In this document: positions 4,773 to 52,886 of the stretch, one piece after another
How the letters are laid out: each line of letters begins with the position of its first letter
Numbering within the stretch: the stretch's first letter is position 1
Origin: a virus
DNA: 64,000 nucleotides
Virus record (IMG/VR): IMGVR_UViG_3300017978_000154
Location: 7,367-71,366 of that record
Reading direction: 5' to 3' (one strand)
The notes under the pieces: model-generated
Seen by the model: only the letters and a program-made list of their open reading frames with translations
Databases searched by the model: none
Told to the model about the DNA's origin: nothing
Program-made: the position numbers and the translations under genes

Positions 4773-4802
4773 GATAAGCTCCTTATCGTTTGTTACAGTT
4801 TA

Positions 4803-4831
4803 ATTATACCTTATGCTTGAATTAAAGTCAA
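4803..4831 (-). promoter_or_regulatory. Sigma70-type promoter TTGACT-N17-TATAAT (minus strand)
   Basis: Reverse complement of attata at 4803-4808 and of agtcaa at 4826-4831, spacer 17. Confidence 0.6.
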
Positions 4832-5805: not shown

Positions 5806-5855
5806 TTTCTTATCTCCTAAGAATACATACAAGCAGACTACCTGCTCATTTCTAT

Positions 5856-14374: not shown

Positions 14375-14562
14375 TATTCTTTGTCCAATTCTAATTCTAT
14401 CATTTCGTCCGTGATATGGACGCCAACAACTTCACGATAACCTTCTGGTGTTAATACAACCACTTTAACCTTTTTAAGAGTTTTGTGAATCTCACCGCTA
14501 TTCTTTGGGTAGAGAGCACACCAGTATTTTTTGATTTTATCAGAGATGTCGTAAGCGTCCAT
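14374..14562 (-). CDS. Hypothetical 62-aa protein between nrdA and nrdB
   Basis: ORF track. ATGA coupling at both ends. Confidence 0.3.
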   Translation of the reverse strand: MDAYDISDKIKKYWCALYPKNSGEIHKTLKKVKVVVLTPEGYREVVGVHITDEMIELELDKE

Positions 14563-24562: not shown

Positions 24563-24964
24563 TTAGCAGTTCCACTTTCTTAAGGCAAGAGCCTTACGAG
24601 TAGGTTCGCCATTTGGTTTCTTCATTGGACCATCTACACCAGACATACGTGCACAGAAAGACTTGCGACGGTTAGCAGCTTTGCTGCCTTTCTTTAGTTT
24701 AGAAGGTGGAGTAGTTACAGGTGCCTTTAGGTTGCTACCGTGTTCGCGATTATAGGCATCGCGACCCTTTTGTGTAAGACCACCAGTTGCAGACTTATGT
24801 CCTTTAGCATCAGCAGTTGCTGCTTCATCCAGTTCGTTTTCTTCTTTAACTGGAACGCAGTTTGGAACTTTCTTACCGTTCTTTTCTTTCATACCGATGG
24901 CTTCATAACCAGTCCAGCATGGATCTTTTTTCTTTTCTTCTAGGTAGTCTTTAAACGAAATCAT
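24563..24964 (-). CDS. Small basic protein with a CTS-like N-terminus (MISFKDYLEE). Candidate internal protein
   Basis: N-terminal similarity to T4 IP capsid-targeting sequences with an L-x-E prohead-protease-type site. Lys/Arg-rich. Confidence 0.4.
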   Translation of the reverse strand: MISFKDYLEEKKKDPCWTGYEAIGMKEKNGKKVPNCVPVKEENELDEAATADAKGHKSATGGLTQKGRDAYNREHGSNLKAPVTTPPSKLKKGSKAANRRKSFCARMSGVDGPMKKPNGEPTRKALALRKWNC

Positions 24965-26739
24965 TTTGCCCCCATATGTTTTCTTAAATCATTATAAAGA
25001 GCAGACTTGTGTAAGTCTTTCATGTGTGTTGGTAAACCAGCGTGGAACTCTTTTTGTTTTCCAGCAGCTGCTAATTCGCGCATCTTAGTACCTGATACTC
25101 CAGCAGTACCCTCAGCGTCTGGGTCACGTTCACCAGATGAGTGAACTGTGATTGACTTGAACTTGTATGCGCCGTGTTTGTGTTCAGAACCGTCGTTATA
25201 CTTATTCAGTAACTTTTCGTATTCTTCTGTACGATCAGAACCAGCCACAACGTGTAAGTGACGAGTACCTTTAGCGTACATGTCAGCAGCATGGTGAAGA
25301 ATAGTTGGCTTCTCTTTAGAAGCAGCTTCAATGTTTGTTCCTGGGAAAGCGTTACGAGCGTGTGTTACTTTAACATCAGCAGGTAAAGGGTTTTTCTTTT
25401 CATCATGACTATGTGATAGCACAACCTTATGGTCACCGTTGTGAGTTTTGGCTACTTCTTTGACTTTGTTGATAACTTGTTCATGACCAACAGTTGGCGG
25501 GTTCATACGACCAAAGGCTAGAACGCCATGCTTCTCATCAGGTTCTTTTGAAGGAGTACGAGCCTTCAATAAGTTTTGACGGGCAAACTCTGCACGGTTG
25601 ACCAACTTAGTAGGTTCTGTAACACCATTATGTGTATGGTTATAAACGAAGCCTTCAGGTTTAGAAGCCTCGCCATTGATAGCGTGTTCGTAAGAACCTT
25701 CGTTAGATTCTAGAGACTTAACAAGTTCGTTCTTGGCAGACTGAAGGTGACCGTGCATCTTCAATAGGTTATCGTAGTGACCTTGGTTCTTCTTGATATG
25801 ATCCAAGTGACCTTTTAGTTCATCCAGTTTAGCGTTCTGAGCTTTTTCAGTCTTTAGCTTAGAAACCATCTTCTCATACTTACCAGCGATGTGAGTCTTC
25901 AAACCTTCAGCGTCTGGCGTAGTACCTTCGCGCACAGTTTGGTTGATGTATGTGGCTAGATGTCCACCGTCACCGTGGTGCATAGATGTAGCTTTGTACA
26001 TCTTTCCCTTATGCTCAGCGTGGATAGCACGAGCAGCGGACATATGTTTGTTGAATGAATCTTGAGACTGCTTAGAGTAGTGAGCACCAGAAGCATCATA
26101 ATCAGCAGTGTGATGGAATACGTCTGGGTGTTGTCCGAAATCACTTCCGGAAACATTATGGTGAGCAGACATGCTGCTTAGTTTATCACCTTCGTATTTG
26201 GTATGAACAACTACACCAATCTTAGACTTCTTAATAGCTTCAGCCTTTTCACCCTTGGCTGTATATGTGATAGTGTTAGGTGTAAACGAAACCTTATCAC
26301 CTTTCTTCTTTAAGTCATCGTGAGTAAACATCAAGTCGCCTTGATATACACCAGACTTTGGAGAAACTTTAGGGAAGTGCTTAAGAGCAGACTTTAGCTT
26401 ATCGGCTAGACCAGGAGCATGTCCGTGGTTAGCATCTACATCTTCTGGAGTGTAGTTAATCTTTGGGTTCTTATTGAACGCTGACTTAGATGCCACAAAG
26501 AACTTACCGTTCTCAGGGTGGTGACCAAACACAACTGATGGAGAACCATCATACTTCATTGTCATCTTATGAGACTGAAGCCCTTGTACAGTGTGATGGT
26601 GCGCAGCTTGAAGAGCACCATAAGCGTGTTCAAAGCCATCTTCTCCGTGTAGAAGTGGACGGTCTTCAGCGTGGTGAATGTGCTTTAGTTTAGCACCTTC
26701 CTCTTCAGCTTCTAATAAGAAATTTAGAAAATTGATCAT
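24961..26739 (-). CDS. His/Lys-rich 592-aa protein with a CTS-like N-terminus and a C-terminal HIGH-motif nucleotidyltransferase domain. Candidate packaged internal protein
   Basis: MINFLNFLLEA N-terminus. FGRMNPPTVGHEQ (HxGH) and VSGTKMRE (ISxTxxR-like) match the cytidylyltransferase/NMNAT-type fold motifs. Confidence 0.5.
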   Translation of the reverse strand: MINFLNFLLEAEEEGAKLKHIHHAEDRPLLHGEDGFEHAYGALQAAHHHTVQGLQSHKMTMKYDGSPSVVFGHHPENGKFFVASKSAFNKNPKINYTPEDVDANHGHAPGLADKLKSALKHFPKVSPKSGVYQGDLMFTHDDLKKKGDKVSFTPNTITYTAKGEKAEAIKKSKIGVVVHTKYEGDKLSSMSAHHNVSGSDFGQHPDVFHHTADYDASGAHYSKQSQDSFNKHMSAARAIHAEHKGKMYKATSMHHGDGGHLATYINQTVREGTTPDAEGLKTHIAGKYEKMVSKLKTEKAQNAKLDELKGHLDHIKKNQGHYDNLLKMHGHLQSAKNELVKSLESNEGSYEHAINGEASKPEGFVYNHTHNGVTEPTKLVNRAEFARQNLLKARTPSKEPDEKHGVLAFGRMNPPTVGHEQVINKVKEVAKTHNGDHKVVLSHSHDEKKNPLPADVKVTHARNAFPGTNIEAASKEKPTILHHAADMYAKGTRHLHVVAGSDRTEEYEKLLNKYNDGSEHKHGAYKFKSITVHSSGERDPDAEGTAGVSGTKMRELAAAGKQKEFHAGLPTHMKDLHKSALYNDLRKHMGAK

Positions 26740-30072: not shown

Positions 30073-30678
30073 TTACCCTAATTGTCCTTCTAGGAAGGCT
30101 AAGACTTTCGCTTGTTCCTCTAAGTTAGTATTTGCAAACTCAGTAATATAAGGCATCAAGTCAAAATTTGATAACAGGTTACTATATTTAGTTTCGCGAC
30201 CTCTTAGGAATTGCTCGGACTGATCAGAACCACGATCTTTATATCGCTGTTCGAGAACTGTCTTAGGTGCGTTCAGGAATACGATATGAAGCTCGGTATC
30301 TGGGAGACCCATGGCGAACTCTAGGAAAGACTGATTGAAGATACGGTCACCTTCAAATAGAACGTTACAGTTATGGGAAGCGATCCACTCCTGCATGGCT
30401 GGCTGAACTGCCATAGAAAGACGGTCGGTTCCAGCGAACACTTCGCCTTCTTCATACTTACCAAGGATGTATAGATCACGCTCAGTATTATACATGGCTG
30501 AAACTAGCTTGGCTGGTTCAACTGGTTGGAATACTTTACTTTCCATATACTTACGGAACAACGTGGTCTTGCCAGTTCCTGGGCTACCACCAACAGCAAT
30601 AAGTTTTCTCACTTTTTTCTCCGCTCTAATAAGTTGAATGGTGACTTCATCATTCGCTTTAATTTTATCAATGAACAT
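30073..30678 (-). CDS. P-loop kinase (candidate nucleic-acid/nucleotide kinase; candidate 5-hydroxymethylpyrimidine DNA kinase by context)
   Basis: Walker A AVGGSPGTGKTT. About 200 aa. Sits in an operon with the modification-type genes. Confidence 0.55.
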   Translation of the reverse strand: MFIDKIKANDEVTIQLIRAEKKVRKLIAVGGSPGTGKTTLFRKYMESKVFQPVEPAKLVSAMYNTERDLYILGKYEEGEVFAGTDRLSMAVQPAMQEWIASHNCNVLFEGDRIFNQSFLEFAMGLPDTELHIVFLNAPKTVLEQRYKDRGSDQSEQFLRGRETKYSNLLSNFDLMPYITEFANTNLEEQAKVLAFLEGQLG

Positions 30679-31105
30679 TATTCAGTAACTCTTTCAATTC
30701 TTCATCAGTGAATACCCAAACACGACCGATGAAGTGATGAACGTCAGCATCCTTATCGTGTTTCTTTTTGAACATAACCTTCTTGGCAATATCACGTGCT
30801 AAGTTCTTGGCGATGTTCTCTTTAATCTCAGAGGCATAATCAGGGGCAACCTCTTGTAGCTTCAATAGCTCTTGAGCAGTTACTTTATGATCAACAGCGA
30901 TACGGTTGAGGCTATGCTCATCCATAATCTCATCCACTGTGCGTGTAATCTTTGGGAGAGGTGTAGCAGCAGTCATAGCATTATGAGCCGACCAACTACT
31001 AATACCAATTGGTGCAAGACCGCTATTTGTTACAACAGAATAATTGCCGTCGCTTAATGTAAGACTTCCTTGCATCACATCATTTAATACGTCATCTGGG
31101 TTCAT
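30668..31105 (-). CDS. Hypothetical protein
   Basis: ORF track. Overlap-coupled to both neighbours. Confidence 0.35.
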   Translation of the reverse strand: MNPDDVLNDVMQGSLTLSDGNYSVVTNSGLAPIGISSWSAHNAMTAATPLPKITRTVDEIMDEHSLNRIAVDHKVTAQELLKLQEVAPDYASEIKENIAKNLARDIAKKVMFKKKHDKDADVHHFIGRVWVFTDEELKELLNNVH

Positions 31106-32121
31106 GTAAACATCTCCAATCCCATTAAGGGTTTTTCTTCATCTTCAAACATCCATTCTAAGTTATCTATTTTACCTGAGTTCAGGAAGAAAGTAAACTT
31201 TTCTTTATTGATGCCATTCTTGTGGTCTAGTCGCAAGTCGATTGTTTCATTTCGAGATTGCCACATAACATTCCAATCAATACCATACCATCCATCACCT
31301 TCAGCTTTGATAATCTCTTCAGCTTGACGGTCAAGGTAATATCCAAGATAGCGACCGTGCTTTGCTCTAAAGATTTTCTTGAAAGAACACAGACAGGTTT
31401 CCATAGTAAAGAAGTCAATTTGATTTGCTAGTTCAGGAAACCTGTCTAGCATTTCAACCCTGATTCCCTCGCCAAATGCTTCAAGGTCTCCATACTCGCT
31501 TCCAGTGAGTTTTCGATCAACATCGTTATCACGCCCAGCGGCAAAAAGTAATCCATTACGATGAGAACGGGAACCATCATAATCATCCAACATAAGAGAA
31601 CTAGGCTCAATGTTAATACCAGCAGTGTGCTTAAGATGCTGCATATAGAACCAAGTAGAATAACGACCAAACTTATGAAGCCTTGACTTAAGAACGCTCC
31701 ACAGAGCATCAAAGTTTTCTTTAGCATCACCGACGTAGTACGATTCGAGTGTTTCACGTTGAGTCTTCTTTCCAATAAAATTTTGATACGATTCAAACAT
31801 TGCTGGAAGATGACCCTTGTTCCATTTCGTATCAGTCTGGTAACGGAGTCGTTTGTAGTTGGTTGTATTCCATTGAGTGATACGATCTACCGTGGCAAGT
31901 TCGTAGTCAGGGAATTCGTTCTTAAGAACCCAAGCAGTTGGCAGTTGATATGTGTTACCATACAACCAAGCGAACCAAATACGTTCTTCGTCATTATGTT
32001 CATAACGTTTATGAAGATAGTTTGTAGCCCAAACCGCTGGGTCACAGTCATCATATTTCATTGACCATGCGTACCAGCGGATGAAGGCTTCTCTTCTGTT
32101 TTCTTTATTTCGATAATCCAT
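31102..32121 (-). CDS. Uncharacterised W/Y-rich 339-aa protein; candidate base-modifying transferase (aGPT-Pplase-like) by context only
   Basis: No catalytic motif recognised by eye. Placed between the P-loop kinase and the ParB-like gene in the same operon. Confidence 0.3.
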   Translation of the reverse strand: MDYRNKENRREAFIRWYAWSMKYDDCDPAVWATNYLHKRYEHNDEERIWFAWLYGNTYQLPTAWVLKNEFPDYELATVDRITQWNTTNYKRLRYQTDTKWNKGHLPAMFESYQNFIGKKTQRETLESYYVGDAKENFDALWSVLKSRLHKFGRYSTWFYMQHLKHTAGINIEPSSLMLDDYDGSRSHRNGLLFAAGRDNDVDRKLTGSEYGDLEAFGEGIRVEMLDRFPELANQIDFFTMETCLCSFKKIFRAKHGRYLGYYLDRQAEEIIKAEGDGWYGIDWNVMWQSRNETIDLRLDHKNGINKEKFTFFLNSGKIDNLEWMFEDEEKPLMGLEMFT

Positions 32122-33460
32122 CTCGTGTCACAATGTTGTGATTAAATGGGTGCGCAAAGAAGATGTTAATCTTACTTTTAACACCGTGTGTTAAAATATT
32201 ATCCAGCTTTTTAAGGACACTGTCAGCTTCTGTCAAATAACCAACGATACTCTTAAAGTGAATAATTATATTCGCTTCGTTCTTACCACCTTTAACGAAG
32301 TTCTCAACCGCATAAGCAATAGCACCACCAATACCACCGTTATTCACCCCATCAAGAGATTGGTAAATAACAGGCAGACCATTATTATGTGTAGATTGTT
32401 GCCAGTAACGAGCAAGAGTAGCAGTGCTGTAATCAATGAAGTTTTGTTCATTCTTTGAACGAGCAAGGGCTTCAGCGGTTGCTTCAGCTAACTGGTCGCA
32501 TTTACGAATGACGTCAGAGTTAAGCCACATACCACCCTTCTTAGTACCTTTACCACCAAGATCTTCTTTGGCGATTGCTTTGAAACCAACGCTGTCGAAA
32601 CTGTGTGATGGGTAACGTGCTTGAAGTTCGCGAAGACGCATCACCAAGTCATCAAGTGTATTACCAGTGCGTTCAGCTTCGACATGGTTCATCAAGTTGC
32701 CAAAGATATTGAAGTTATACGCATCATTATCAAAGTGAGAGTAATCAACTTTGATAACAGGGAATGTATCCCAACCAGCAACAGAAGCAGCATTGACACG
32801 ATGGTTACCATCAAGCAACATAATGATACGACCGTTGGCGTCAACTAAAACAATAACTGGGGTGATATGCTTTCTAGCAAATCCTGGCGTTTTAAACGCA
32901 GTAATCAGAGAAGAAAGTTTGTCTTGTTTTAACTTGAATGCACGTGCTTGGTTGTGGTTGGTTATGTATAGCGTATGTACAGATTCTTCTGTTACAGGGA
33001 ATTCTTCAGTACCACCTTCTTTCCATTTTTCAATGGCTTCAGTAACCTTTCCCCACAGTTCAATCAGTTCAGGTGTTTTGGTTTTCTTCTCGAGGATAAG
33101 GTCGCTTGGGTCAAACCACTCACCAGTTTCAACCCACTTTGTAACATTGTCAACATGTTCTTTTACTGGACGGAATGATCGAACGACGCCTGGTCCGCCA
33201 CCATTAGTTTTATTATAGAACTGTTTAGAATTCTTTGCGTCAAACAAACTCAAAAAGAAATACTCTTGGTTGTACATTTCTTCTTTTGTGCCGTGCGCAA
33301 GAATAACACGCTCAATTAGGTCTTGGTGGATGGCTTCTTTGAGGAACCGATTAGTCGAGGATGTAATGTAGTTATCAACGGTCACATCTCCGTTGTGCAC
33401 ACCAATATACTTTTCTTTGGTGTTTACATTAGTCAAGCCGTACAAAATCCAAGTAGACAT
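32105..33460 (-). CDS. ParB/Srx-like domain protein with a GIY-YIG-like N-terminal motif
   Basis: VLVDANGRIIMLLDGNHRVNAA is the ParB N-terminal-domain DGxHR signature. ILYGLTNVNTKEKYIG is a GIY-(n)-YIG-like N-terminus. Confidence 0.45.
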   Translation of the reverse strand: MSTWILYGLTNVNTKEKYIGVHNGDVTVDNYITSSTNRFLKEAIHQDLIERVILAHGTKEEMYNQEYFFLSLFDAKNSKQFYNKTNGGGPGVVRSFRPVKEHVDNVTKWVETGEWFDPSDLILEKKTKTPELIELWGKVTEAIEKWKEGGTEEFPVTEESVHTLYITNHNQARAFKLKQDKLSSLITAFKTPGFARKHITPVIVLVDANGRIIMLLDGNHRVNAASVAGWDTFPVIKVDYSHFDNDAYNFNIFGNLMNHVEAERTGNTLDDLVMRLRELQARYPSHSFDSVGFKAIAKEDLGGKGTKKGGMWLNSDVIRKCDQLAEATAEALARSKNEQNFIDYSTATLARYWQQSTHNNGLPVIYQSLDGVNNGGIGGAIAYAVENFVKGGKNEANIIIHFKSIVGYLTEADSVLKKLDNILTHGVKSKINIFFAHPFNHNIVTRDGLSK

Positions 33461-33487
33461 AATAAATCCTTTTCAAGTTATAGATAT

Positions 33488-33516
33488 ATTATACTATATT
33501 CTTGAATAAAAGTAAA
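33488..33516 (-). promoter_or_regulatory. Sigma70-type promoter TTTACT-N17-TATAAT (minus strand)
   Basis: Reverse complement of attata at 33488-33493 and of agtaaa at 33511-33516. Confidence 0.5.
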
Positions 33517-33521
33517 TACCC

Positions 33522-34073
33522 TCAAAACCCTTCTAGAGTCAGGGGTTTCTGGGCTTCAGCGAGGTCAAACACCTCTACGCAGCCACCTTTACCCTTTTTA
33601 TGGATGGCTCCGTTGATCATCTGGTCTGTATAGTCGTAGTCTCCCTCAAAGAAGGTATCACCATCAATTCTAAAAATACTCAGCTGACAACCAGACTTTT
33701 GTTTACCCCAGAACTTGAAACCAATCTTCTCATAGAAGCCAACTGATTCTGGTTCTGACGATACACGGAAGTACAACGCTTGTTTACTTTTAACATGACG
33801 AAGTGATGCTTCACATAATGCTTTGGCTGCTCCCTGACCCCTGTGTTTAGCAAAGGTATGAAGCAGTTGTAGATTAGCAACGAAAGGTTTACGCTTAGAG
33901 ATAGTGGTAATGATAGCAGCCATCAGTTCACCTTCTTCGTTGAAGGCACCGATACAATCATCCCACTGTTCCTGCATGTCTGCTTTGGCCACGAAAGTCT
34001 TAGCAAACTTGTCAGCCTTATCATCAGAGATAGCTTTTATGAATTGGTCACGAGTACACTTATTCAACTTCAA
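33522..34073 (-). CDS. GNAT family N-acetyltransferase
   Basis: HRGQGAAKAL matches the (R/Q)xxGxG/A acetyl-CoA binding motif in a typical about 180-aa fold. Confidence 0.65.
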   Translation of the reverse strand: MKLNKCTRDQFIKAISDDKADKFAKTFVAKADMQEQWDDCIGAFNEEGELMAAIITTISKRKPFVANLQLLHTFAKHRGQGAAKALCEASLRHVKSKQALYFRVSSEPESVGFYEKIGFKFWGKQKSGCQLSIFRIDGDTFFEGDYDYTDQMINGAIHKKGKGGCVEVFDLAEAQKPLTLEGF

Positions 34074-34932
34074 CGTATGTTCTCACTTTCTTACCACGTT
34101 CTTCTGGGTGTTTAGTCTTTTCCCAACCGATGAACTGAGCCAAGTCCCATTGCATTGGTGGGAACTTATAACCACGTTCAGAGATAAGCTCATTGACACT
34201 TGGACCATCATTCAATGCAGCATCAAGGAAGTCTTCAACAAAACGGAAGCATGATTCTAGTTCAGTACGATCTAACGTGCCACGGAACAATCGAAACTCT
34301 ACCGTGTCAATATGCTTCAACGCATACATGTTAATAGCGAAACGGAATGGACGACCCATTGATACACCATCTTTACCTGCGGCGTGCATCTTGATAAAAG
34401 AATCAAAGTCAGTTGCTAGGTTGATAATGTTATCGCTCATGTAGTCAGGCATTGGGCGACCACCATCAAACTTCAGATACATCTTAGAACCTTTGGCACC
34501 CTTCATCTGGTTGTGCTCAAAGAAGCCATATACATGTTCAATGGCTGCAGCTTGGTTCTCTTTGATGTATTTTGTTAGACGCTTCAGTGCATCAATATCA
34601 TCACGAAGACCTGGGACACGGCAATGAATATGGGTATGAGCAGTAACACCAACAGTTGGGTCGTGACCTTGTTCATTGAATAAATCTTTCAGTTCAAAAT
34701 AACGATCAACTTGGTCTTGCCAAGTTCTAGTTGGCTTGGTGTTAATCTCACCACCCATCGGCGGTTCAACACCCAACGGATCGGCGCACACGTTTGCGTA
34801 TGGTGCACGAAGGTTGATAATGTCACGCTCAGAGTATTCCCAAGAACCTAGTTGTTCCGGAATTGAAAAAGAGCGGGGAACATCTCCCCACTCTATCTCC
34901 ATGCCATATGTAAAATCACTTTTGTTGTACAT
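34060..34932 (-). CDS. Glutamine-synthetase-like amidoligase (putative amidoligase family)
   Basis: EIEWGD, HTHIH and FRLFRGTLD conserved-residue pattern of GS/GCS2-type amidoligases. Start placed at MYNKSDF (AAGGA RBS); track start at 34962. Confidence 0.45.
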   Translation of the reverse strand: MYNKSDFTYGMEIEWGDVPRSFSIPEQLGSWEYSERDIINLRAPYANVCADPLGVEPPMGGEINTKPTRTWQDQVDRYFELKDLFNEQGHDPTVGVTAHTHIHCRVPGLRDDIDALKRLTKYIKENQAAAIEHVYGFFEHNQMKGAKGSKMYLKFDGGRPMPDYMSDNIINLATDFDSFIKMHAAGKDGVSMGRPFRFAINMYALKHIDTVEFRLFRGTLDRTELESCFRFVEDFLDAALNDGPSVNELISERGYKFPPMQWDLAQFIGWEKTKHPEERGKKVRTYVEVE

Positions 34933-35623
34933 TCTGTAAATCCTTGTTTCCTGTTTTAACAAGTTGCATTCTCATAGTTAGACCAGAGTCAAACGTAATA
35001 TATGTGTCCATTGGAATTTCCATGTTTGGAAAATACAAATTAGCACGTTTGGCAATATCTGCTGTAGAGGTAATTATACTACCATTCGATAGAGTAGTCA
35101 AATATAATGGACGCTTACCATTGCGATAAACAGTCAACTCTTTAGGAGAAGCCGTGAGAGTACAAACTGCCATGGACATATTGTTGAACTCATCAAGAGG
35201 ATCGTTTGAATGCAGGACTAACTCAGAATCATTCTTTGTTGCGCAGTCATAACCATACAACTCTTTCCAGTGTTCTGGAAGCTCTTGAGTGATAACACCA
35301 TTGTGGACAATTGATTTGTCTGCATTGGCCATAGGTTGGTTATATTCCAAATCAGATGTCGAGTAACGACAGTGACCGATCAGATATAAGTTACCATCCT
35401 TGTTAATGAACTCTTTGAAGTTGTCGTTATGCATATGCTTCTCAACGAACTGATCCGCTGGGATAGCTTCCTTAATTGTAACAATATCATCAGTCCACTT
35501 TGGTAAGAATGACATACCTGTTGCGTGCATACCACGAATCTTAGACTCGACGAACACACGCTTCAGGGCTTCAAAATCCTTCAGAGAAGGATTCTTAATA
35601 ACTGCTCCAATTACGGCACACAT
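34916..35623 (-). CDS. Class-II (Ntn) glutamine amidotransferase domain protein
   Basis: MCAVIG: Cys directly after the initiator Met is the hallmark of GATase type 2 N-terminal nucleophile enzymes (PurF/GlmS/AsnB type). Confidence 0.6.
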   Translation of the reverse strand: MCAVIGAVIKNPSLKDFEALKRVFVESKIRGMHATGMSFLPKWTDDIVTIKEAIPADQFVEKHMHNDNFKEFINKDGNLYLIGHCRYSTSDLEYNQPMANADKSIVHNGVITQELPEHWKELYGYDCATKNDSELVLHSNDPLDEFNNMSMAVCTLTASPKELTVYRNGKRPLYLTTLSNGSIITSTADIAKRANLYFPNMEIPMDTYITFDSGLTMRMQLVKTGNKDLQNVQQK

Positions 35624-36996
35624 TAGGAAAAGAACTCATCTAGTGAAGAAGCATTAGATTCTGGATGCATCTTCAAGGTTTCTGCTTCGCCAACTTCTTT
35701 CTTACAGAAGTCATACCACTCTTGGCTTTCCCACATTCCAGCGTACACACCGTTAAAGCGTGGGCGATAATGAGGGTTGTTAACATCGTTCTTGCAGTGA
35801 TCAACGAACTTACGACGAGCATTTTCATACTCCATAGAACCAAGAGTCAACATACCTTCGTGGAAGAATGCAATGATAGAGATACGTTCAGCATTAGGGT
35901 CATCCAGAATCAATTCAGTATTACCATGCAGACCAGCCATGTTATTAACGAACAGTAAATCACCTGGACGAATGTTAACAGCATAACCAATCTCGGGGAA
36001 TACCAAGTAAGCACCTCTATAATTATCAGAGTTACTAAACACGCAGATATTAGCGAAACCATCATCCATATTTGCGGGGTCATAGTGGGCTGCAGTTCTG
36101 AAGTTACGGTTTACAGTAATTGTACTGAATGGAGTATTTGGGACCAAGAAGCGTGGATCAATCTTATCCGCAGCAGCTTTCTGGTTACCATAACGCCATG
36201 GCAACAATTCCTCAAACGCTTTAGACAAGTGTTGGAGATATGGATAAGACTTCTTGAACTTATCGAATTGCTTCTCAGTGTAAGAAGTTGCACGACCATA
36301 AGGGATACGTGGATAACGATCGTACCAACCAGCAATACCAGAGTTCACTGGGTTTGCATATGTAGTCTTGGAGATTAGGTTATCTTCAACCCAAGCTGCA
36401 TCGGCTGAAGCGTCAGCTGCAGGTTTACGGCGAGTTGTTTCAACCCAGTCATCAAATTGGAACCCAGCATCTGCAACCGAATCGCGAAGCCATACTTGAG
36501 CACGGTTAGACGCTTGGTCACGACCTTCGGCATATTTAGTTTGGATAGCTTCAATCGGGTCTTCACCCAACAAGTTACCAGCACCCTTCTTAAAGGCTTC
36601 AATGATATCCCATTGATACGCTGTAACCCAGTCGCGACCTTGTAGCTTCTCACCACGTGGACCAGCAGCAGTACCACGGTTCTGAGTTTCAGTAGCTGCG
36701 TCACGAAGACCTTCGTAAGCAGACTTTGTCATTTCATCACTGAAGTAGTTCTTACGGAACTTGAAAACAATCTTACGTTCATCAAGTGCCTTGGAGCAAC
36801 CACTACACGCCTTTTCACAATTTGGGTCAGACAGGTCAGTTGCACAAGAAGCAGGAAGGTACAAGTCCATGTCAGACTCAACCAATGTATGGTAATGGCG
36901 TTCATCAAGCCAAGTACCAACTAGGTCTGGACGAGGAACAACCTCAGGGGCTTCCAATACAACAACTTTCACATTTCTACCAGCATCAACACTCAT
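35623..36996 (-). CDS. 2-oxoglutarate/Fe(II)-dependent dioxygenase-like protein with an N-terminal Cys-cluster domain. Candidate nucleic-acid base hydroxylase
   Basis: AAHYDPANMDDG ... GLHGNTEL ... RISIIAFF gives an HxD...H...RxS double-stranded beta-helix pattern. N-terminal CATDLSDPNCEKACSGCSK. Confidence 0.5.
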   Translation of the reverse strand: MSVDAGRNVKVVVLEAPEVVPRPDLVGTWLDERHYHTLVESDMDLYLPASCATDLSDPNCEKACSGCSKALDERKIVFKFRKNYFSDEMTKSAYEGLRDAATETQNRGTAAGPRGEKLQGRDWVTAYQWDIIEAFKKGAGNLLGEDPIEAIQTKYAEGRDQASNRAQVWLRDSVADAGFQFDDWVETTRRKPAADASADAAWVEDNLISKTTYANPVNSGIAGWYDRYPRIPYGRATSYTEKQFDKFKKSYPYLQHLSKAFEELLPWRYGNQKAAADKIDPRFLVPNTPFSTITVNRNFRTAAHYDPANMDDGFANICVFSNSDNYRGAYLVFPEIGYAVNIRPGDLLFVNNMAGLHGNTELILDDPNAERISIIAFFHEGMLTLGSMEYENARRKFVDHCKNDVNNPHYRPRFNGVYAGMWESQEWYDFCKKEVGEAETLKMHPESNASSLDEFFS

Positions 36997-37007: not shown

Positions 37008-38402
37008 TTAAAACTTAAATCCGCTAAAATTCTCAGACTGCATTCTGGAACCAAAACCACTCTTATCAAATAATGGTTTGTCATCTTTGACGTGTCCAGC
37101 GTCAGCCAAGCCTTCTTGGGCAGATGCTTCAACATCATATAATTTCATCTTACTTCTATCAATACCAACCACAAATCGTTTATAGTAATTTGGGTCGTTG
37201 TAACGGTTCTTCAACTGCTTGACGATAATCTGATTCAGGTTTTCTAGTTCTTCACTTGAAACCAAAGCAAACATAAAGTCAGCTGTCGCAGGTAGACCGA
37301 ACGATTCAGAAGTATCTTCAAGTCCTGGGTCTGAACTACCATATCCAGAACGGGTAGTTTGTGTGGCTGAAACAATGGGTACATTATATTCAACCGCTAG
37401 ACCACGAAGCTCTTCAGCAATCGCTTTCACAAACGTATATGAATTAACATTCGCACCAGCTTTCATCCTCTGAGAGGAACAAATATTTAGATAATCTATA
37501 AACACGATATCTGGAACAAATTCACGTTTGAGTTTAAGTTCTTCTAGCAATGCACGGAAGTGACCAGCATGAGCAGAAGCAGTTGGATATTCTTTGACGA
37601 TTAGTTTACCCTGTGTCTTTTTCTTCAGTTTATCAATGCGTGATTCAAAGATGTCTTTGTCGACAACCTTCAATTCATCCATAGTCAAGTTCAAAAGGTT
37701 TGCGTCAATACGTTCAGCGATACGTTCTTCTGACATTTCCATAGTAATGTAGAGAACGTTACGACCTGCAGTTAGTGCGCCAGCTGCAACGTGACACATA
37801 AACAAGGACTTACCAACACCAGTACCAGCCAGTGCGATGTTCAAAGTCTTACGGCTCAGACCACCCTTGGTAATCTTGTTGAACATATCCAAGTCGAATG
37901 GAATCTTCTCTTCAATGCGATGATAAAAGTCATAGCGATGAGCGAAGTCATCCAAGTAGTCGTGACCCACATGGCTGTCAAAAGATACAGCAAGTGCGTC
38001 AGATAATAGGTGAGGGATTGCGTCTTGTCCATGCGTGGGATCTTTACCCTCAAAGATCTTAATGGAGTTCATGATAGCCAAATAAACGGCTCGGTCTTTA
38101 CAGAACTTCTCAGTGCTTGTAAGTAACCAGTCTTCGTTTACGGGTGCCTTGACCAAAGTCTTGATGTACTCGCCAATGTCGCCAACTTCTTTGTCGGTAA
38201 CACCTTTTGCGTTTGAAACTTCAATCGCTAGAATTTCAGGTGTTAGGGATTTATTGTATTTGTTAAAGAAGTCGATGATCTCAGTGATGATCACCGATTC
38301 TTTACGATCGGAAAAATACTCACGCTTTAGGAATGGAATGACCTTACGACAATAGTGCTCATCATGAATCAAATTACTCAGAATTTGTTGTTCGATTCTC
38401 AT
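37008..38402 (-). CDS. Replicative DNA helicase (T4 gp41-like, DnaB family)
   Basis: N-terminus MRIEQQILSNLIHDEHYCRKVIPFL aligns with T4 gp41 MVEIILSHLIFDQAYFSKVWPYM. Walker A GTGVGKS. Confidence 0.85.
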   Translation of the reverse strand: MRIEQQILSNLIHDEHYCRKVIPFLKREYFSDRKESVIITEIIDFFNKYNKSLTPEILAIEVSNAKGVTDKEVGDIGEYIKTLVKAPVNEDWLLTSTEKFCKDRAVYLAIMNSIKIFEGKDPTHGQDAIPHLLSDALAVSFDSHVGHDYLDDFAHRYDFYHRIEEKIPFDLDMFNKITKGGLSRKTLNIALAGTGVGKSLFMCHVAAGALTAGRNVLYITMEMSEERIAERIDANLLNLTMDELKVVDKDIFESRIDKLKKKTQGKLIVKEYPTASAHAGHFRALLEELKLKREFVPDIVFIDYLNICSSQRMKAGANVNSYTFVKAIAEELRGLAVEYNVPIVSATQTTRSGYGSSDPGLEDTSESFGLPATADFMFALVSSEELENLNQIIVKQLKNRYNDPNYYKRFVVGIDRSKMKLYDVEASAQEGLADAGHVKDDKPLFDKSGFGSRMQSENFSGFKF

Positions 38403-38679
38403 CAGTTCCGCCAGTGTATACTATGTTATTCTTTAATAAGTTTTCTTCGAGTAGATCAATCAGAATATCGCCAATGTGATTTCTGAACTTGCTTGGATCA
38501 AGAACGCCAACTGGGTTCTCTTGAATGTCATATTCAAACTGAACACGCAGTTGGTCTTCTTCTTCAAGCAAACGAACTCTACCGTAAGTATAAATTATAC
38601 CTGAATACTCGTTGGAAGTCAAGCGAATTAACTGATTTCCTTCAACGTCTTCATCCAAGAGTTCGTATGCTTTGATCAT
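38374..38679 (-). CDS. Hypothetical protein at the position of T4 gene 40
   Basis: ORF track; synteny only. Confidence 0.35.
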   Translation of the reverse strand: MIKAYELLDEDVEGNQLIRLTSNEYSGIIYTYGRVRLLEEEDQLRVQFEYDIQENPVGVLDPSKFRNHIGDILIDLLEENLLKNNIVYTGGTDENRTTNSE

Positions 38680-39746
38680 TCTTCGTGGTCCAATTCAGCA
38701 AGTTCTTTGTCGATAGACTCATCACTTACCATTTCAATTTGACCAATTGAATACTTGTCCTTAACGAAGTCATAGAATGACTTTGTTTGTAACACTGGCA
38801 TCCAGAATTCTTTGGTATCGGTATCTTTGATTCGATACTTCTTGTCTTCGACTTCACCAGTCTCAACATTTACCTTTGAATACCAACCATTGCTAGGCTT
38901 GATAACATGTCCTGATTCGAGTGCAAGATCAAGTAGACCGCTCCACTTGCTAATACCACCGTCAAAAGATACGGACACAGGGATTTTAGATTTTTCTTTA
39001 ACATGACGAGATTTTTCAACGTTGATAATAAAGTTGTAGCCGACGACTTCAGTACCTTCTTTTTCTTGCTGACGACCTAAGATGTAGATGTTATCAGCAG
39101 AGTAATACGAACCAGTACCACCACCAACGATAGCTTTCGGGAACATACCAATTTCCATGTAGGTGTGGTTAACAACTACCATTGGAATATCTTTCAAAGT
39201 CAAGTGCGGTGTTACCATACGGAACAAAGACTTCAACTGTTTGGCACGGGACATATCCGCAACAGACTTACCGTCTAACGCATCTTCAACTTCTTTCTTA
39301 GAAGCCAAGTTACCGATAGAATCAATAACAATCATCACACGCTCACCACGTTCGATATTTTGTAATTGTTGCATACAGTCAAACTTCAACTGTTCGATGT
39401 CAGTGATTGGAGTATGGATAACCTTCTCAGTATCAATACCGAAAGCATCGAAGTAAGATTGTGGTGTACCAAACTCAGAGTCATAGAACAAGATAACTGA
39501 ATCTGGGTACTTGTCCTGATATGCTTTAGCCATCAGCAAAGAGAATGCAGTCTTAAAGTGCTTAGATGGACCAGCCCACATAGTTAGTCCAGGAGTCAAT
39601 CCACCATCAAAGCGACCAGATAAAGCCACGTTGATAACTGGGATTGAAGTTGGGATCATATCCTTCTTAGTGAAGAATTTAGATCCAGAAAGGATAGCAG
39701 TATCCTTGATTGTGGAGTTCTTTTTGATTTTGTCAAGTAAGCTCAT
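38676..39746 (-). CDS. uvsX: Recombinase UvsX (RecA/Rad51 family)
   Basis: MSLLDKIKKNSTIKDTAILSGSKFF aligns with the T4 UvsX N-terminus. Walker A region GPSKHFKT. Confidence 0.9.
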   Translation of the reverse strand: MSLLDKIKKNSTIKDTAILSGSKFFTKKDMIPTSIPVINVALSGRFDGGLTPGLTMWAGPSKHFKTAFSLLMAKAYQDKYPDSVILFYDSEFGTPQSYFDAFGIDTEKVIHTPITDIEQLKFDCMQQLQNIERGERVMIVIDSIGNLASKKEVEDALDGKSVADMSRAKQLKSLFRMVTPHLTLKDIPMVVVNHTYMEIGMFPKAIVGGGTGSYYSADNIYILGRQQEKEGTEVVGYNFIINVEKSRHVKEKSKIPVSVSFDGGISKWSGLLDLALESGHVIKPSNGWYSKVNVETGEVEDKKYRIKDTDTKEFWMPVLQTKSFYDFVKDKYSIGQIEMVSDESIDKELAELDHEE

Positions 39747-39997
39747 TATTCACCCTTCATAAATTTCAAAACAGCAGCTTCATTCATAACGCCAGAAACA
39801 CGACGTTGTTCTAAGCCTTTTTCATCCACCAAGATCATAGTGGGAACACCACGGATGCCATATTGTTTGGCTAACTCCATGTTATCATCAATATCAATTT
39901 CTTCCAACTGTACTGGAAGTTCTCCCATGTCACCAATAACGGTGCTCAATGCTTTACATGGTCCGCACCAAGATGCGCTAAATTTTAATACTTTCAT
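39746..39997 (-). CDS. Thioredoxin
   Basis: WCGPCK active site. Start placed at MKVLKF (AAAGGAAAT RBS). Confidence 0.8.
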   Translation of the reverse strand: MKVLKFSASWCGPCKALSTVIGDMGELPVQLEEIDIDDNMELAKQYGIRGVPTMILVDEKGLEQRRVSGVMNEAAVLKFMKGE

Positions 39998-40013
39998 ATA
40001 TTTCCTTTGTGTC

Positions 40014-42500
40014 TTATCCGAAGAAGTCTTCAAGGGATGCTGTTTCTTCAGCACGCCAGTTCAACGGTTCAATAATTGTTTTTAATGGTTCTACAAATGT
40101 CTTGTCAAATTGTGTGTCGTAGTCTATGAAAGAATCCAGCTTAAACTCTTTAGGGAGTTCTTGCAGGAAGGCGATGACGTTTTCGTGGAATGGGTTTGGA
40201 GTTCTTAGATAAACGAATTTAATCTTATCACCCTCACGAATCAATGGATATTTCTTGTCGATGCCAAATTTCTTAACGTAGTGATTATATAGTAGTGCTG
40301 CACGGACAGCAATCGGGCAACCCTTCTGATAGATCGGAGAACCAGCATACTGCTTCAAACCTGACACGCCACGAGGGAATGCGATAGCTTCAACAGGGTA
40401 TGTCAAGAACTCGTTCTTGTAATCAGCGATATACTTCTGTACAACCTTTTCACTGCCATCTAGAATAACGTTGATGGACTTCTTCAGTTCTTTACGAATA
40501 ACGGCTGGTGTCGAAGAACGAACCATCGCTAAACCAAGAACCTTTTGCTTTGGAGTTGCATACTGAACACCTTCAGAGTTATGCACGTTAAGCACATAGT
40601 TCTTCTTTGCAACCCAAAGACCTTTGTCAGCCAAAACTTCACGCTTCATAATCATCTTCTGAGAATATGCGTTCATGTACTCGGCAAGTTTCTGATAAGT
40701 TGTATCAATGAACGGTTGGAAGATATCTTCGCAAATCTTGTCCATGTACTTGATCTTACCATTTGTATCTTTATCACCAGCAAAGTGCTCAACCAATTCT
40801 TCCAATGTCAGATAGATTGAGTCAGTATCAATAGCGATAACAAAGTCTTTACCTTCGGTCTTTAGGATCTTGTTCAGGTATCGGTTGAACTCGTTGGCCA
40901 TCCATTGAATGGACAACTGTCCAGAAGTTGTAATACCCTCAGCCATACGAATATCGAAATAGCGGAAGTACTGGTTACCCATAGCACCGTAAGCAGAGTT
41001 CAAAGCAATCTTCATAGCCATCTGAAGGTTATTCAGTCGGCTGATTTCTTTGCGCAGGTCGTTATTACCTTTGTCGTGTTCATACTTTTGTTGAACACCA
41101 AGCATCTGCTTTTTGAACTTTGAACGGTTAGCATACATCTGTTCCATCAACTCAGGCATAAACCCTTTGATGTCTTTACGATAGCACCAACCATTTGCAG
41201 TTACGGTCAAATCACGTTTGTGTGCGTGTGATGTGTCAATCTCTTGATTGAGTAGTTTGTCAACAGTAACAGAGATCTTTTCATGAGTCAAAGTCTCAGG
41301 GGAGATATTGTACTGCATGATCAAGTGAGGATACAATGAGTTCAAGTCAAAAGAAACAACCCACTTATGTAAACCAACCTGTACGTCTTTAACGAAAGCA
41401 CCTTCAAACTGTTCAGACTTACCGCTGTGTTCTTTCATTGGGATAACAATGTTCTTCTTACGAAGGTGATTGTAGATGATAGCATCCCACATACGAACTT
41501 GCGAGTAGACGTCTTCGTAGTTAATTTTGGCTTGGTAAGCCATGGTCAAGTGAAGTTCGATTAGACGCATCTTATCTTCAAGACGGTCAACCAGTTCTAC
41601 GTCATGAATGTTATACTCAACGAACTGTTGCCAGTGGTTTGTATAGAAGTCACGGAAAGTATCACCAGGATTCTCTTTCTTCTTGTCGCCTAGTTCCTGC
41701 TCTGCAATGTAATCCAATCGGTAGGATTCTTGCTTGGAGTAAGTATACTTTTTGTACAACTCGAGATAGTCAAGCTGACTAATACCAGAAACATCATAGT
41801 GGATTTCTTCATTGCCTTTGATGAACGTTTTGCGTTCAGTAATCATACCCCATGGAGAGATCTTCTTGGCGAGTGCTTCGCCAAGTTCACGAATCATTCG
41901 ACGAATCAAATAAGGTGTGTCGAAGAAGTCGGTGTTCCAACCAGTAATAACGTCAGGGTAGTTTTGTTGCCACCAGATGATGAACTCTTTGAGCAAGTGT
42001 TGCTCTGAAGCGCAGTTGATGTAAACTACATCGTCACGATCATGAACGAAAGCACCAACACCGAAAGTGATGATGCGCTTTGATGTCAGGTCTTTGACCG
42101 TGATCAAGAGGATTTCTTCGTTAGCTGTGACAATGTTCGGGAAGCCTTCTTCAGTCTTGGTTTCGATGTCAATCGTAAAGACTTTGAGTTGTTCCATATC
42201 CCAGTTGATATCATAGTCGTATGTATCACTGATGTATTGCAGACCGTAGTTAGTCTGACCATAGACGTTGAAGCCTTGCACTCCATCGTAACGCTTCATG
42301 AAGTCGCGAGACTCACGAATGCTCCCTGGTTGCACTTCATCAACGTAAGTGCCATCCAAGGTTTGCCATTTAGATTTACCCTTTGCATTAACAAAAAGGG
42401 TTGGCATAAAATCAATGCGTCGCTGGTAAGGTCGTCCGTTTTCGTAACCACGAACTAAAACCTTATCACCAGCGACTTGTACGTTTGTATAAAATTCCAT
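40014..42500 (-). CDS. DNA polymerase, family B (T4 gp43-like)
   Basis: MEFYTNV N-terminus (T4: MKEFYISIE). Exo and pol motifs (DIETK.., YGAMG, DTDS). Start placed at the ATG overlapping the dexA stop (TAATG). Confidence 0.9.
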   Translation of the reverse strand: MEFYTNVQVAGDKVLVRGYENGRPYQRRIDFMPTLFVNAKGKSKWQTLDGTYVDEVQPGSIRESRDFMKRYDGVQGFNVYGQTNYGLQYISDTYDYDINWDMEQLKVFTIDIETKTEEGFPNIVTANEEILLITVKDLTSKRIITFGVGAFVHDRDDVVYINCASEQHLLKEFIIWWQQNYPDVITGWNTDFFDTPYLIRRMIRELGEALAKKISPWGMITERKTFIKGNEEIHYDVSGISQLDYLELYKKYTYSKQESYRLDYIAEQELGDKKKENPGDTFRDFYTNHWQQFVEYNIHDVELVDRLEDKMRLIELHLTMAYQAKINYEDVYSQVRMWDAIIYNHLRKKNIVIPMKEHSGKSEQFEGAFVKDVQVGLHKWVVSFDLNSLYPHLIMQYNISPETLTHEKISVTVDKLLNQEIDTSHAHKRDLTVTANGWCYRKDIKGFMPELMEQMYANRSKFKKQMLGVQQKYEHDKGNNDLRKEISRLNNLQMAMKIALNSAYGAMGNQYFRYFDIRMAEGITTSGQLSIQWMANEFNRYLNKILKTEGKDFVIAIDTDSIYLTLEELVEHFAGDKDTNGKIKYMDKICEDIFQPFIDTTYQKLAEYMNAYSQKMIMKREVLADKGLWVAKKNYVLNVHNSEGVQYATPKQKVLGLAMVRSSTPAVIRKELKKSINVILDGSEKVVQKYIADYKNEFLTYPVEAIAFPRGVSGLKQYAGSPIYQKGCPIAVRAALLYNHYVKKFGIDKKYPLIREGDKIKFVYLRTPNPFHENVIAFLQELPKEFKLDSFIDYDTQFDKTFVEPLKTIIEPLNWRAEETASLEDFFG

Positions 42501-43060
42501 TAACCTTTTCCATACATTAATTGCATAATATCGAGAGCGCAATCATGAACAGGGTGGTGTTTGATTACAGCGGCACGTTGGAAGTCAGGTTGATTAACCT
42601 CAACATATCCGTTAGTTGTACCGTATAAAATATCAACAGCTGTTCTTACATCTCTCCACATATTATACCCTGTAATTGGTTGGCAGTCAAATTTCTTTGC
42701 CAAGTGATCAATTACAATTTGATCCAGAGAACCACGAGCCCACATTGTTTTCTTTTGGGCATTTGGAACCTTGTTCATATAGTTATGCAAGACAGTGAAA
42801 CCCTGCTCAACTGTAAGGTCATCGGAAGAAGGTTCAAGAGCGCAACCTCGAACATACTCGTGTTGGTTCTTCCACCATTCAAGAGTACCAAGGTCAACTG
42901 CACGCTTTGCAGCGATCTGTTCTTTGGCTTTGAACTTTACAAAGCATGCTTTGTCTAACAGTTCTTGATATGTCTCACCACCTTCAAAGTAGATGAGACC
43001 AGCGGACAGTACCACAGAGTTGGAATCAACTCCAAGGGTTTCAACGTCAAACATAAACAT
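42500..43060 (-). CDS. dexA: 3'-5' exonuclease DexA-like (DnaQ fold)
   Basis: MFMFDVETLG (Exo I D-x-E) and HHPVHDCALD (Exo III) align with T4 DexA. Confidence 0.75.
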   Translation of the reverse strand: MFMFDVETLGVDSNSVVLSAGLIYFEGGETYQELLDKACFVKFKAKEQIAAKRAVDLGTLEWWKNQHEYVRGCALEPSSDDLTVEQGFTVLHNYMNKVPNAQKKTMWARGSLDQIVIDHLAKKFDCQPITGYNMWRDVRTAVDILYGTTNGYVEVNQPDFQRAAVIKHHPVHDCALDIMQLMYGKG

Positions 43061-52577: not shown

Positions 52578-52886
52578 TTAAATTTCTTTAGAATATTTCA
52601 CGTCATGTTCATACAAGAACATTAAGCAACACATTGCGTGAGCCAAGTGGTGAATACCAGATTCTGGGTCAACCTGTTCACCCATCTTCCATGCCCACAC
52701 GTGCCTTTGCATAGCAGCAAAGTAACGACGTTTGGAGTCAGGAACAAGCTGCCAATTATCGGGAGCATATTTCTGAGCACCAAACGTCAGAACCTTCACC
52801 ATTTCCTCTTGGGCTAGAGGTGGAATAAGATCGTAGCGAAGTTTGTCGCCATCGAACTTACGTCCAGTAGGAAGGTTTTCGCTCAT
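52578..52886 (-). CDS. Hypothetical protein
   Basis: ORF track only. Confidence 0.3.
   Translation of the reverse strand: MSENLPTGRKFDGDKLRYDLIPPLAQEEMVKVLTFGAQKYAPDNWQLVPDSKRRYFAAMQRHVWAWKMGEQVDPESGIHHLAHAMCCLMFLYEHDVKYSKEI

Follow-up and report, generated by a model that had tools for sequence, protein, structure and literature searches.

In phage T4, the interval between the DNA polymerase gene (43) and the recombinase gene uvsX includes the genes for dCMP hydroxymethylase (42) and beta-glucosyltransferase (beta-gt), which belong to the glucosylated hydroxymethylcytosine (hmC) pathway. What, then, does it mean when a T4-like phage has only a small thioredoxin gene at this place? The question is raised by a 64-kb stretch of viral DNA (64 000 nt, positions 7367 to 71 366 of IMGVR_UViG_3300017978_000154; hereafter the window, to which all coordinates refer unless another locus is named, with (-) denoting the minus strand), for which a first-pass annotation had proposed that the T4 genes were replaced by the thioredoxin. 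Our answer, which we hold to be probable as a whole, is that the thioredoxin serves the phage ribonucleotide reductase (RNR) from a slot of variable content, that the T4 genes were not replaced, that glucosyl-hmC is not made, and that thymine is modified after replication. The thioredoxin in the slot is an ordinary phage accessory gene; phage thioredoxins are common, and beyond the T-even phages one would not expect to find hmC genes.

A short thioredoxin gene with a corrected start

Profile matches on the three genes bear out the arrangement given by the first-pass annotation, in which the gp43 polymerase is followed by a thioredoxin and then by uvsX: the family B polymerase gp43 at 40014-42500 (-) (DNA_pol_B, 1.2e-27; exo1, 3e-21), the thioredoxin (PF00085), and the UvsX recombinase at 38676-39746 (-) (T4_UVSX_C, 1.5e-18; RecA, 4e-12). 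The extent of the thioredoxin gene had to be revised. It had been given as a 102-aa open reading frame (ORF) with a GTG start at 39746-40054, whose 5' part is a false extension into the polymerase gene. We dropped this form in favor of an ATG start on the grounds of the ribosome binding site, the N-termini of homologues and the polymerase overlap, and have thereby corrected the coding sequence (CDS) to 39746-39997 (-), which encodes 83 aa and begins MKVLKFSASWCGPCK. The ATG (39997-39995) lies 16 nt past the polymerase TAA (40016-40014) and 5 nt downstream of a Shine-Dalgarno-like AAGGA at 40003-40007 (-), read from the sequence. Because the homologues all begin MKVLKF or MKALKF, the shorter CDS is the true gene. 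At its other end, the thioredoxin TAA and the uvsX ATG overlap as TAATG. No terminator was found in 38300-42700, and promoter-like sites there are not in excess; the thioredoxin would be co-transcribed and translationally coupled with gp43 and uvsX.

The protein resembles bacterial TrxA in having WCGPC (residues 10-14) and a GVPT cis-Pro loop, and in passing the Pfam gathering score: PF00085 is matched with an E-value of 7e-16 (58.5 bits as compared to a cutoff of 23.5, profile positions 18-102). It also matches phrog_22, labeled ‘thioredoxin domain’ (6.9e-11). Both active-site cysteines are invariant in its relatives, in which the motif is WCGPC, WCAPC or WCQPC, and so is the cis-Pro loop, where GIRGVPTM of the phage protein aligns with the GIRGIPTL region of Escherichia coli thioredoxin (Trx). 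The position of the gene is conserved on 14 IMG/VR contigs, and its ratio of nonsynonymous to synonymous substitution rates (dN/dS) is 0.065-0.079 against the five closest alleles (L009-L013; the more distant L014-L021 were excluded, as the ungapped comparison runs out of register after 1-aa indels). The ORF is therefore not a chance one; the gene is real and under purifying selection. Matches to it are found in 920 phage records.

The polymerase-uvsX junction as a cargo slot

To the claim of replacement, the contents of the same junction in relatives speak most directly. We fetched 80 IMG/VR loci via UvsX and 22 via the thioredoxin, which yielded 73 non-redundant polymerase-uvsX junctions. 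The slot is empty in 23 of the 73, with gaps of 12-28 nt. The thioredoxin family is present in ∼31, nearly always as the last gene before uvsX, either solo or together with genes for cupin/Asp-Asn-hydroxylase-like proteins, 2-oxoglutarate (2OG)-Fe(II) oxygenases, Cpn10 or a tryptophan-halogenase-like protein; ∼16-21 of these 31 slots hold a cupin or 2OG oxygenase gene. Where such genes occur they often precede the thioredoxin, the oxygenase types most commonly and Cpn10 or the tryptophan-halogenase-like protein sometimes (L017 1715-2868, L019 5425-5988, L043 2262-3741 and L054 2366-3742). In cyanophage S-SM2 a lone 56-aa ORF lies between gp43 and uvsX.

A further cargo is a membrane protein found in 10 of the 73 slots (cluster 3, e.g. 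L081 1716-2816), whose homologue in the window stands elsewhere, at 11203-12342 (-), and is predicted to be a 379-aa membrane and coiled-coil protein. One cargo gene can thus be found at differing sites in related genomes.

The T4 order is 43, imm.1, imm, 42, beta-gt, segA, uvsX, 40, 41; the first-pass annotation had quoted the interval correctly save for the omission of imm.1 and segA. Since slot content varies so widely among the 73 junctions, the T4 set is one lineage's cargo and the thioredoxin another's: imm.1, imm, 42, beta-gt and segA on the one hand and the thioredoxin on the other are independent cargoes of one slot, with no sign of replacement. Gene 42 and beta-gt are moreover restricted to certain lineages (see below), and the wording that they had been ‘replaced’ should be abandoned. 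The comparison documents the polymerase-uvsX junction as a cargo hotspot.

Thioredoxin and ribonucleotide reductase

A function for the thioredoxin is suggested by the company that its family keeps outside the slot. Of eight such IMG/VR loci, six adjoin class Ia NrdA, five of them in the order NrdA-thioredoxin-NrdB; at L022 the order is NrdB-like ORF, NrdA, thioredoxin, and at one further locus of the eight the thioredoxin follows a 625-aa RNR-like gene. The best match among isolates, Curvibacter phage P26059A, has NrdB-NrdA-thioredoxin, and the freshwater cyanophage BUCT-ZZ01 has ThyX-thioredoxin. The RNR-operon proteins (P26059A ASJ79188 and L022-L027) belong to the same mini-thioredoxin family as that of the window, with 42-55% identity and the N-terminus MKVLKFSA.WC.PC, and differ in location, theirs lying between or next to NrdA and NrdB and the window's between gp43 and uvsX.

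The window itself encodes a class Ia RNR, with the large subunit NrdA at 14567-16366 (-) (Ribonuc_red_lgC, 2e-105) and the small subunit NrdB at 13394-14374 (-) (Ribonuc_red_sm, 4e-76), separated by a 62-aa ORF at 14374-14562 (-). In two relatives, L023 and L024, the thioredoxin sits exactly at the site of this 62-aa ORF. These are close counterparts of the window operon: their NrdA is 74-78% and their NrdB 79-82% identical to those of the window, the same segE-like gene lies downstream of NrdB, and L024 also has a ThyX fragment upstream of NrdA. Because L023 and L024 carry the thioredoxin where the window has the 62-aa ORF, the gene has apparently changed place within one phage group, the two sites being the RNR operon and the polymerase-uvsX junction; we regard these loci as evidence for such shifting of a thioredoxin family. 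We considered whether the 62-aa ORF might be a thioredoxin remnant and rejected this, as it has no similarity to the thioredoxin and no Pfam match.

Class Ia RNR has a C-terminal cysteine pair that is re-reduced by thioredoxin or glutaredoxin. The translated NrdA of the window ends in DESVCLACEG, with a CxxC pair, and Pfam scans of the ORFs found no other redoxin within the 64 kb. Taking this pair and the lack of a second redoxin together with the RNR-operon context of the family, we conclude that the thioredoxin is most likely the hydrogen donor for the phage NrdAB. Electrons would flow from a thioredoxin reductase, probably that of the host, through the thioredoxin to the C-terminal cysteine pair of NrdA, and this re-reduction would sustain the dNTP supply during replication, a role comparable to that of NrdC in T4. 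NrdC is likewise a small phage dithiol redoxin (87 aa, as compared to 83 aa here) in a T4-type genome with class Ia NrdAB, but it occupies another genomic position and has a glutaredoxin-like active site, CVYC, where the window protein has the thioredoxin motif WCGPC. The two are not detectably homologous (BLASTP E 4.1).

One may instead see in the thioredoxin a general auxiliary metabolic gene, whose product reduces host proteins or buffers redox stress, for instance by switching redox-regulated host enzymes as has been proposed for accessory genes of marine phages and cyanophages. The other slot cargoes, which are themselves accessory genes (the cupin/Asp-Asn-hydroxylase-like proteins, 2OG oxygenases, Cpn10 and the tryptophan-halogenase-like protein), would fit such a role, as would the host-metabolism genes elsewhere in the window, which encode nicotinamide phosphoribosyltransferase (NAMPT), a nicotinamide mononucleotide adenylyltransferase (NMNAT)-Nudix protein, Hsp20 and ferritin-like proteins; and some homologues do stand apart from RNR genes (L020; Alteromonas phage AD45-P1). 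Such a role would nevertheless hardly explain why RNR genes are neighbors at seven of the eight IMG/VR loci outside the slot, and again in the isolate that matches best. We consider a general role of this kind unlikely.

A probable thymine-modification cassette downstream of gp41

The first-pass annotation had noted ThyX and a separate modification-type cassette, and both are present. The flavin-dependent thymidylate synthase ThyX is encoded at 16383-17063 (-) (Thy1, 3.9e-42). The cassette spans 30073-36996, adjoining gp41 directly downstream and thus lying inside the T4-type replication module.

Its first gene, at 35623-36996 (-), encodes a Tet/JBP-family Fe(II)/2OG 5-methylpyrimidine dioxygenase (PF12851, 5e-23; phrog_24024, 4.8e-144), in which the HxD motif (AHYD), the distal His (LHGNT) and an Arg (ERIS) align with the catalytic residues of TET2. 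There follow a class II (N-terminal Cys) glutamine amidotransferase (GATase) at 34916-35623 (-), which matches GATase_6 (1.5e-10), GATase_7 and the NCBIfam asparagine synthase and PurF glutaminase domains; an amidoligase-like protein at 34060-34962 (-), whose gene adjoins that of the GATase in relatives too; a GNAT acetyltransferase at 33522-34073 (-) (Acetyltransf_10, 1.8e-12); a ParB-like protein at 32105-33460 (-); an amino-acid:DNA transferase (AADT, formerly aGPT-Pplase) at 31102-32121 (-) (PF18724, 1.8e-21); and a P-loop kinase of the 5-hydroxymethyldeoxyuridine (5-hmdU) DNA kinase type at 30073-30678 (-) (PF18751 Ploopntkinase3, 2.5e-9). Neither a C5-cytosine methyltransferase nor a dUMP hydroxymethylase was found in the 64 kb by Pfam scans.

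The ParB-like protein is of 451 aa and has a GIY-YIG-like N-terminal domain. Residues 3-92 match phrog_314 (1.2e-10), which is GIY-YIG homing-endonuclease-like, and all 17 full-length homologues (alignment A1) align over this N-terminal region. Residues 181-254 match two ParB PHROGs at 6e-4; ParB_N is matched by 9 of 18 family members (best 4e-5). A profile of the family had no match among Protein Data Bank (PDB) sequences. The AlphaFold2 model (pLDDT 81) gave top Foldseek matches that are all ParB, Noc or KorB, among them pNOB8 ParB, Noc, and the ParB proteins of Myxococcus xanthus and Bacillus subtilis (E 1e-5 to 1e-3). We predict that this protein is the activator of the dioxygenase.

By its content the cassette belongs with systems of a kind characterized only recently, in papers of 2021 and 2026. 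According to O'Toole et al. (2026, PMC13229309), GATases, P-loop kinases and AADTs consistently accompany the ParB-dependent T-dioxygenases of clade C1. Metavirome contigs have been reported in which thymidine hypermodification clusters carry TET_JBP instead of dUMP hydroxymethylase (Lee et al. 2021, PMC8989533). The window cassette matches this class of ParB-associated thymine dioxygenase pathway: it shares with the clade C1 5mYOX systems and the TET_JBP clusters the Tet_JBP enzyme, ParB homologue, P-loop kinase, AADT and GATase, with no C5-methyltransferase or dUMP hydroxymethylase nearby. A difference lies in the ParB component, since ParB176 (PMC13229309), with mutated NBD residues numbered 14-56, apparently has no N-terminal extension, whereas the window protein has its GIY-YIG-like domain before the ParB part.

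We conclude that the phage most likely modifies the thymines of its DNA post-replicatively. In the proposed pathway, ThyX would supply ordinary dTMP; the ParB-activated dioxygenase would then convert T in DNA to 5-hydroxymethyluracil (5-hmU), which the kinase would phosphorylate; AADT would let an amino acid displace the phosphate; and the GATase, the amidoligase-like protein and the GNAT protein may tailor the adduct by amidation, ligation or acetylation. The gene order polymerase, thioredoxin, uvsX, 101-aa ORF, gp41, Tet/JBP dioxygenase is kept in many uncultured relatives. One can now recognize an uncultured T4-like clade in which gp41 is immediately followed by a hypermodification cassette with a ParB-associated thymine dioxygenase. 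As a target, the base that the cassette produces in the end, after GATase, amidoligase-like and GNAT tailoring, would be more worthwhile than the thioredoxin.

Homologues of the dioxygenase, with 41-43% identity, are known from T4-like phages that have been isolated. They (Caulobacter phage Cr30, L006, NC_025422 59353-60681; Stenotrophomonas phage DLP6, KU682439 27224-28519; and C48C1) are annotated as ‘SNF2 DNA repair protein’, a label that, for Cr30 and DLP6, looks like mis-annotation. Cr30 has AADT-like and kinase-like genes near its dioxygenase. For DLP6, the portions of its description available to us (PMC5349666) make no clear statement on restriction resistance.

Two further genes of the window are of types met in base modification. 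A 102-aa protein at 52578-52886 (-) has a dATP/dGTP diphosphohydrolase N-terminal domain (PF18909, 4.8e-35), a type of nucleotide-pool enzyme found near base-replacement systems; Cr30 also has a gene of the dATP/dGTP diphosphohydrolase type, adjoining its dioxygenase gene. The other, at 1-1218 (-) and continuing in L029 3843-5132, encodes a radical SAM enzyme of the B12-binding type that weakly resembles PhpK-family P-methyltransferases (E 2e-11, far under the cutoff). Radical SAM enzymes of phage M6 tailor thymidine hypermodifications; the window gene lies 29 kb away from the cassette.

The thioredoxin and the DNA machinery

Nothing evident ties the thioredoxin to DNA modification, and relatives of its family otherwise occur in RNR operons. 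It could be imagined, even so, to act at the replication fork or on DNA, as a polymerase accessory in the manner of E. coli thioredoxin with T7 gp5, or as a reductant by which Fe(II)/2OG enzymes on the DNA are held in the ferrous state. We think such a site of action quite improbable. So, to the same degree, is the broader claim that the thioredoxin reaches beyond RNR as a redox partner of the replication and modification machinery, keeping the ParB-dependent thymine dioxygenase and the 2OG oxygenases and cupins of the slot active, or binding the B-family polymerase.

The gene does occupy a conserved, translationally coupled place between gp43 and uvsX, and slot thioredoxins are frequently adjacent to cupin or 2OG oxygenase genes. 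Among 44 relatives with enough sequence, 16 have both a slot thioredoxin and a Tet/JBP dioxygenase gene after gp41, 1 has only the thioredoxin, 9 only the dioxygenase, and 18 neither (Fisher p 1e-4), counts that are approximate, as the ORF rule used missed the thioredoxin of L014. This co-occurrence is phylogenetically confounded, both traits being confined to a clade with polymerase identity of at least ∼62%, and we have therefore set it aside as evidence of function. The ∼9 relatives that bear the dioxygenase without a slot thioredoxin, and L021, which has the thioredoxin without the dioxygenase, likewise tell against a functional tie, as does the presence of the same thioredoxin family in RNR operons elsewhere. 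The comparison with T7 extends to a thioredoxin found with a phage polymerase, here by gene adjacency only. T7 polymerase is of family A, has a dedicated thioredoxin-binding loop, and uses the host thioredoxin. That mechanism needs the loop of a family A enzyme, but the window polymerase belongs to family B, and the window also encodes the clamp (gp45) and the clamp loader (gp44/62) that go with it.

A variant that would suit action on DNA is found at L055 3582-4001 (IMGVR_UViG_3300022602_001708), where the slot thioredoxin (WCAPC) continues C-terminally into an extension of ∼50 aa with KKPAAKK repeats and a high content of Lys, Ala and Pro. This extension matches a histone H1-like family, HC2 (E 1.4e-6), so that the fusion protein may bind DNA.

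Genes for glucosyl-hmC

That no hydroxymethylase or glucosyltransferase is encoded in the 64 kb, as the first-pass annotation had stated, was upheld within the limits of the searches made. Pfam scans of all called window ORFs gave no match to Thymidylat_synt (PF00303), to a glycosyltransferase or to a DNA methylase; scanning concatenated ORFs may hide weak matches, and key genes were scanned again singly. Searches of the six window frames with T4 gp42, beta-gt, alpha-gt, gp56, imm.1 and gp40 (tblastn at word size 2, and phmmer --max) produced nothing below E ∼0.1, the best values being 0.5-3 for gp42 (tblastn and phmmer), 0.24 for alpha-gt, 2.3 for beta-gt and 0.21 for the dCTPase gp56. Thus, no dCMP hydroxymethylase, glucosyltransferase, dCTPase or DNA methyltransferase is detectable within the window. 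The places that T4 reserves for these genes, 47/55 for alpha-gt, 43/uvsX for 42 and beta-gt, and the neighborhood of 61 for 56 and dam, are all inside the window, and none holds them; gp55 directly adjoins gp47, with no gene between. As far as the window reaches, nothing points to a glucosyl-hmC pathway in this phage.

This is what should be expected of such a phage. In the survey of Petrov et al. (PMC2993671, Table 4), gene 42 is confined to T-even and JS98-type phages and to a small number of others infecting enterobacteria, Acinetobacter or Aeromonas, and beta-gt to T4 and CC31; a marine T4-like phage would thus normally be without gene 42. The earlier suggestion that the phage does not use glucosyl-hmC and may protect its DNA differently thus stands insofar as the window has no glucosyl-hmC genes and encodes another modification system, but the surprise implied in it does not. 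The T-even system (gp42, gp56, gp1, alpha-gt and beta-gt) and the window have in common only the gp43/uvsX junction, which that system occupies in T4 and the thioredoxin occupies here; the former acts before replication and on cytosine, whereas the window system, in which the T-even enzymes are not detectable, is predicted to act after replication and on thymine.

Could the DNA be of the hmC type after all, through homologues of gene 42, gene 56 and the glucosyltransferases beyond the window? The window covers only ∼40% of what is probably a genome of ∼165-170 kb, and gene order is plastic beyond the core blocks. Yet, all three T4 syntenic positions have been accounted for, and a further ∼4 kb of flank to the left of the window, with the radical SAM gene, small ORFs and an RNase H-like gene, holds no hmC gene either. 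Gene 42 is not known in cyanophage-like and marine T4-like lineages (PMC2993671), and the polymerases nearest to that of the window are cyanomyoviral. The presence of ThyX and of a predicted thymine pathway suggests modification of T rather than of C. We regard hmC-type DNA in this phage as very improbable.

Points that weigh against the combined reading

The combination that we prefer, of an RNR-serving thioredoxin, unreplaced T4 genes, no glucosyl-hmC and thymine modified after replication, has to be held against a number of points that weigh on the other side. Several concern the thioredoxin itself and its differences from bacterial TrxA. It scores under the cutoff for NCBIfam TIGR01068 (E 1.3e-16, 60.6 bits, as compared to a cutoff of 96.8), and aligns only with residues ∼24-97 of E. 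coli Trx (E ∼1e-9). We therefore take it to be a shortened form without the N-terminal beta1-alpha1 unit (the first ∼20 residues), beginning at the strand that precedes the active site. Further, the position of the buried Asp26 of E. coli Trx is occupied by Lys.

Others concern its proposed role. The thioredoxin gene lies 23 kb from nrdAB in the window, so that the RNR link rests on other genomes. The window encodes no thioredoxin reductase. A host thioredoxin or glutaredoxin could serve the phage RNR, and the phage thioredoxin may then be dispensable.

On the side of DNA modification, the amidoligase assignment is a weak one (Amidoligase_2, E 0.017 only), and the specificity of the dioxygenase for thymine rather than 5-methylcytosine is drawn from context and literature. 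Lastly, absence of the hmC genes applies to 64 kb plus ∼4 kb of a genome whose size is probably 165-170 kb, relatives having contigs of 163,824 and 170,832 bp.

Genome layout and remaining genes

Nearly all genes of the window are on the minus strand; together they make up the part of a T4-type myovirus genome that serves replication and nucleotide metabolism. Its core genes, in order of descending coordinate, are UvsY, UvsW, gp55, gp47, gp46, gp45, gp44, gp62, RegA, DNA ligase, gp43, UvsX, gp41, gp61, ThyX, NrdA and NrdB. The closest annotated polymerases are gp43 proteins of cyanomyoviruses (best identity ∼55% by tblastn), and alignment to known phages at the DNA level is limited to parts of gp41, uvsX and the polymerase gene at ∼70-78% identity. 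On these grounds the source, a marine T4-like myovirus, is uncultured and a distant relative of known isolates; near-identical fragments of the window DNA are present in IMG/VR and in Joint Genome Institute (JGI) metagenomes. No Rfam family or tRNA was found in the window.

The polymerase probably starts at the ATG at 42500 (protein MEFYTNVQ...): the mechanical ORF list stretches gp43 to 42542, and tblastn alignments of cyanomyovirus gp43 start at residue 14-15. Downstream of uvsX, a conserved 101-aa ORF at 38374-38679 (-) (phrog_3998, 6.6e-9), syntenic in relatives, fills the uvsX/gp41 interval; it sits at the position of T4 gene 40 and has no detectable similarity to T4 gp40. The replicative helicase gp41 follows at 37008-38402 (-) (DnaB_C, 1.4e-19; ∼70% DNA identity with cyanophage gp41).

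Away from the replication genes, the window encodes an NAD salvage pair at 3372-5832 (-), which consists of the nicotinamide phosphoribosyltransferase (NAPRTase, 1.8e-59, with a NAMPT_N domain) and a fused NMN adenylyltransferase-like/Nudix protein, and which we take to resemble the pair of Vibrio phage KVP40. A dual-specificity phosphatase-like protein is encoded at 2238-2744. At 8962-10566 (-) is a gene for a 534-aa protein with a signal-peptide-like N-terminus, ∼7 tandem repeats of the form C-P/S-G-Y-x-x-A-Y-x-x-x-Q-C and an Ala/Pro/Thr-rich region, for which there was no Pfam match. Two large proteins, at 22421-24523 and 24961-26739 (-), each have a cytidylyltransferase-like GRFNPP.VGHE motif, and one of them has DUF6267 (E 1.5e-95); in cyanophage S-SM2 the equivalent region after gp41 contains an annotated ‘cytidyltransferase’.

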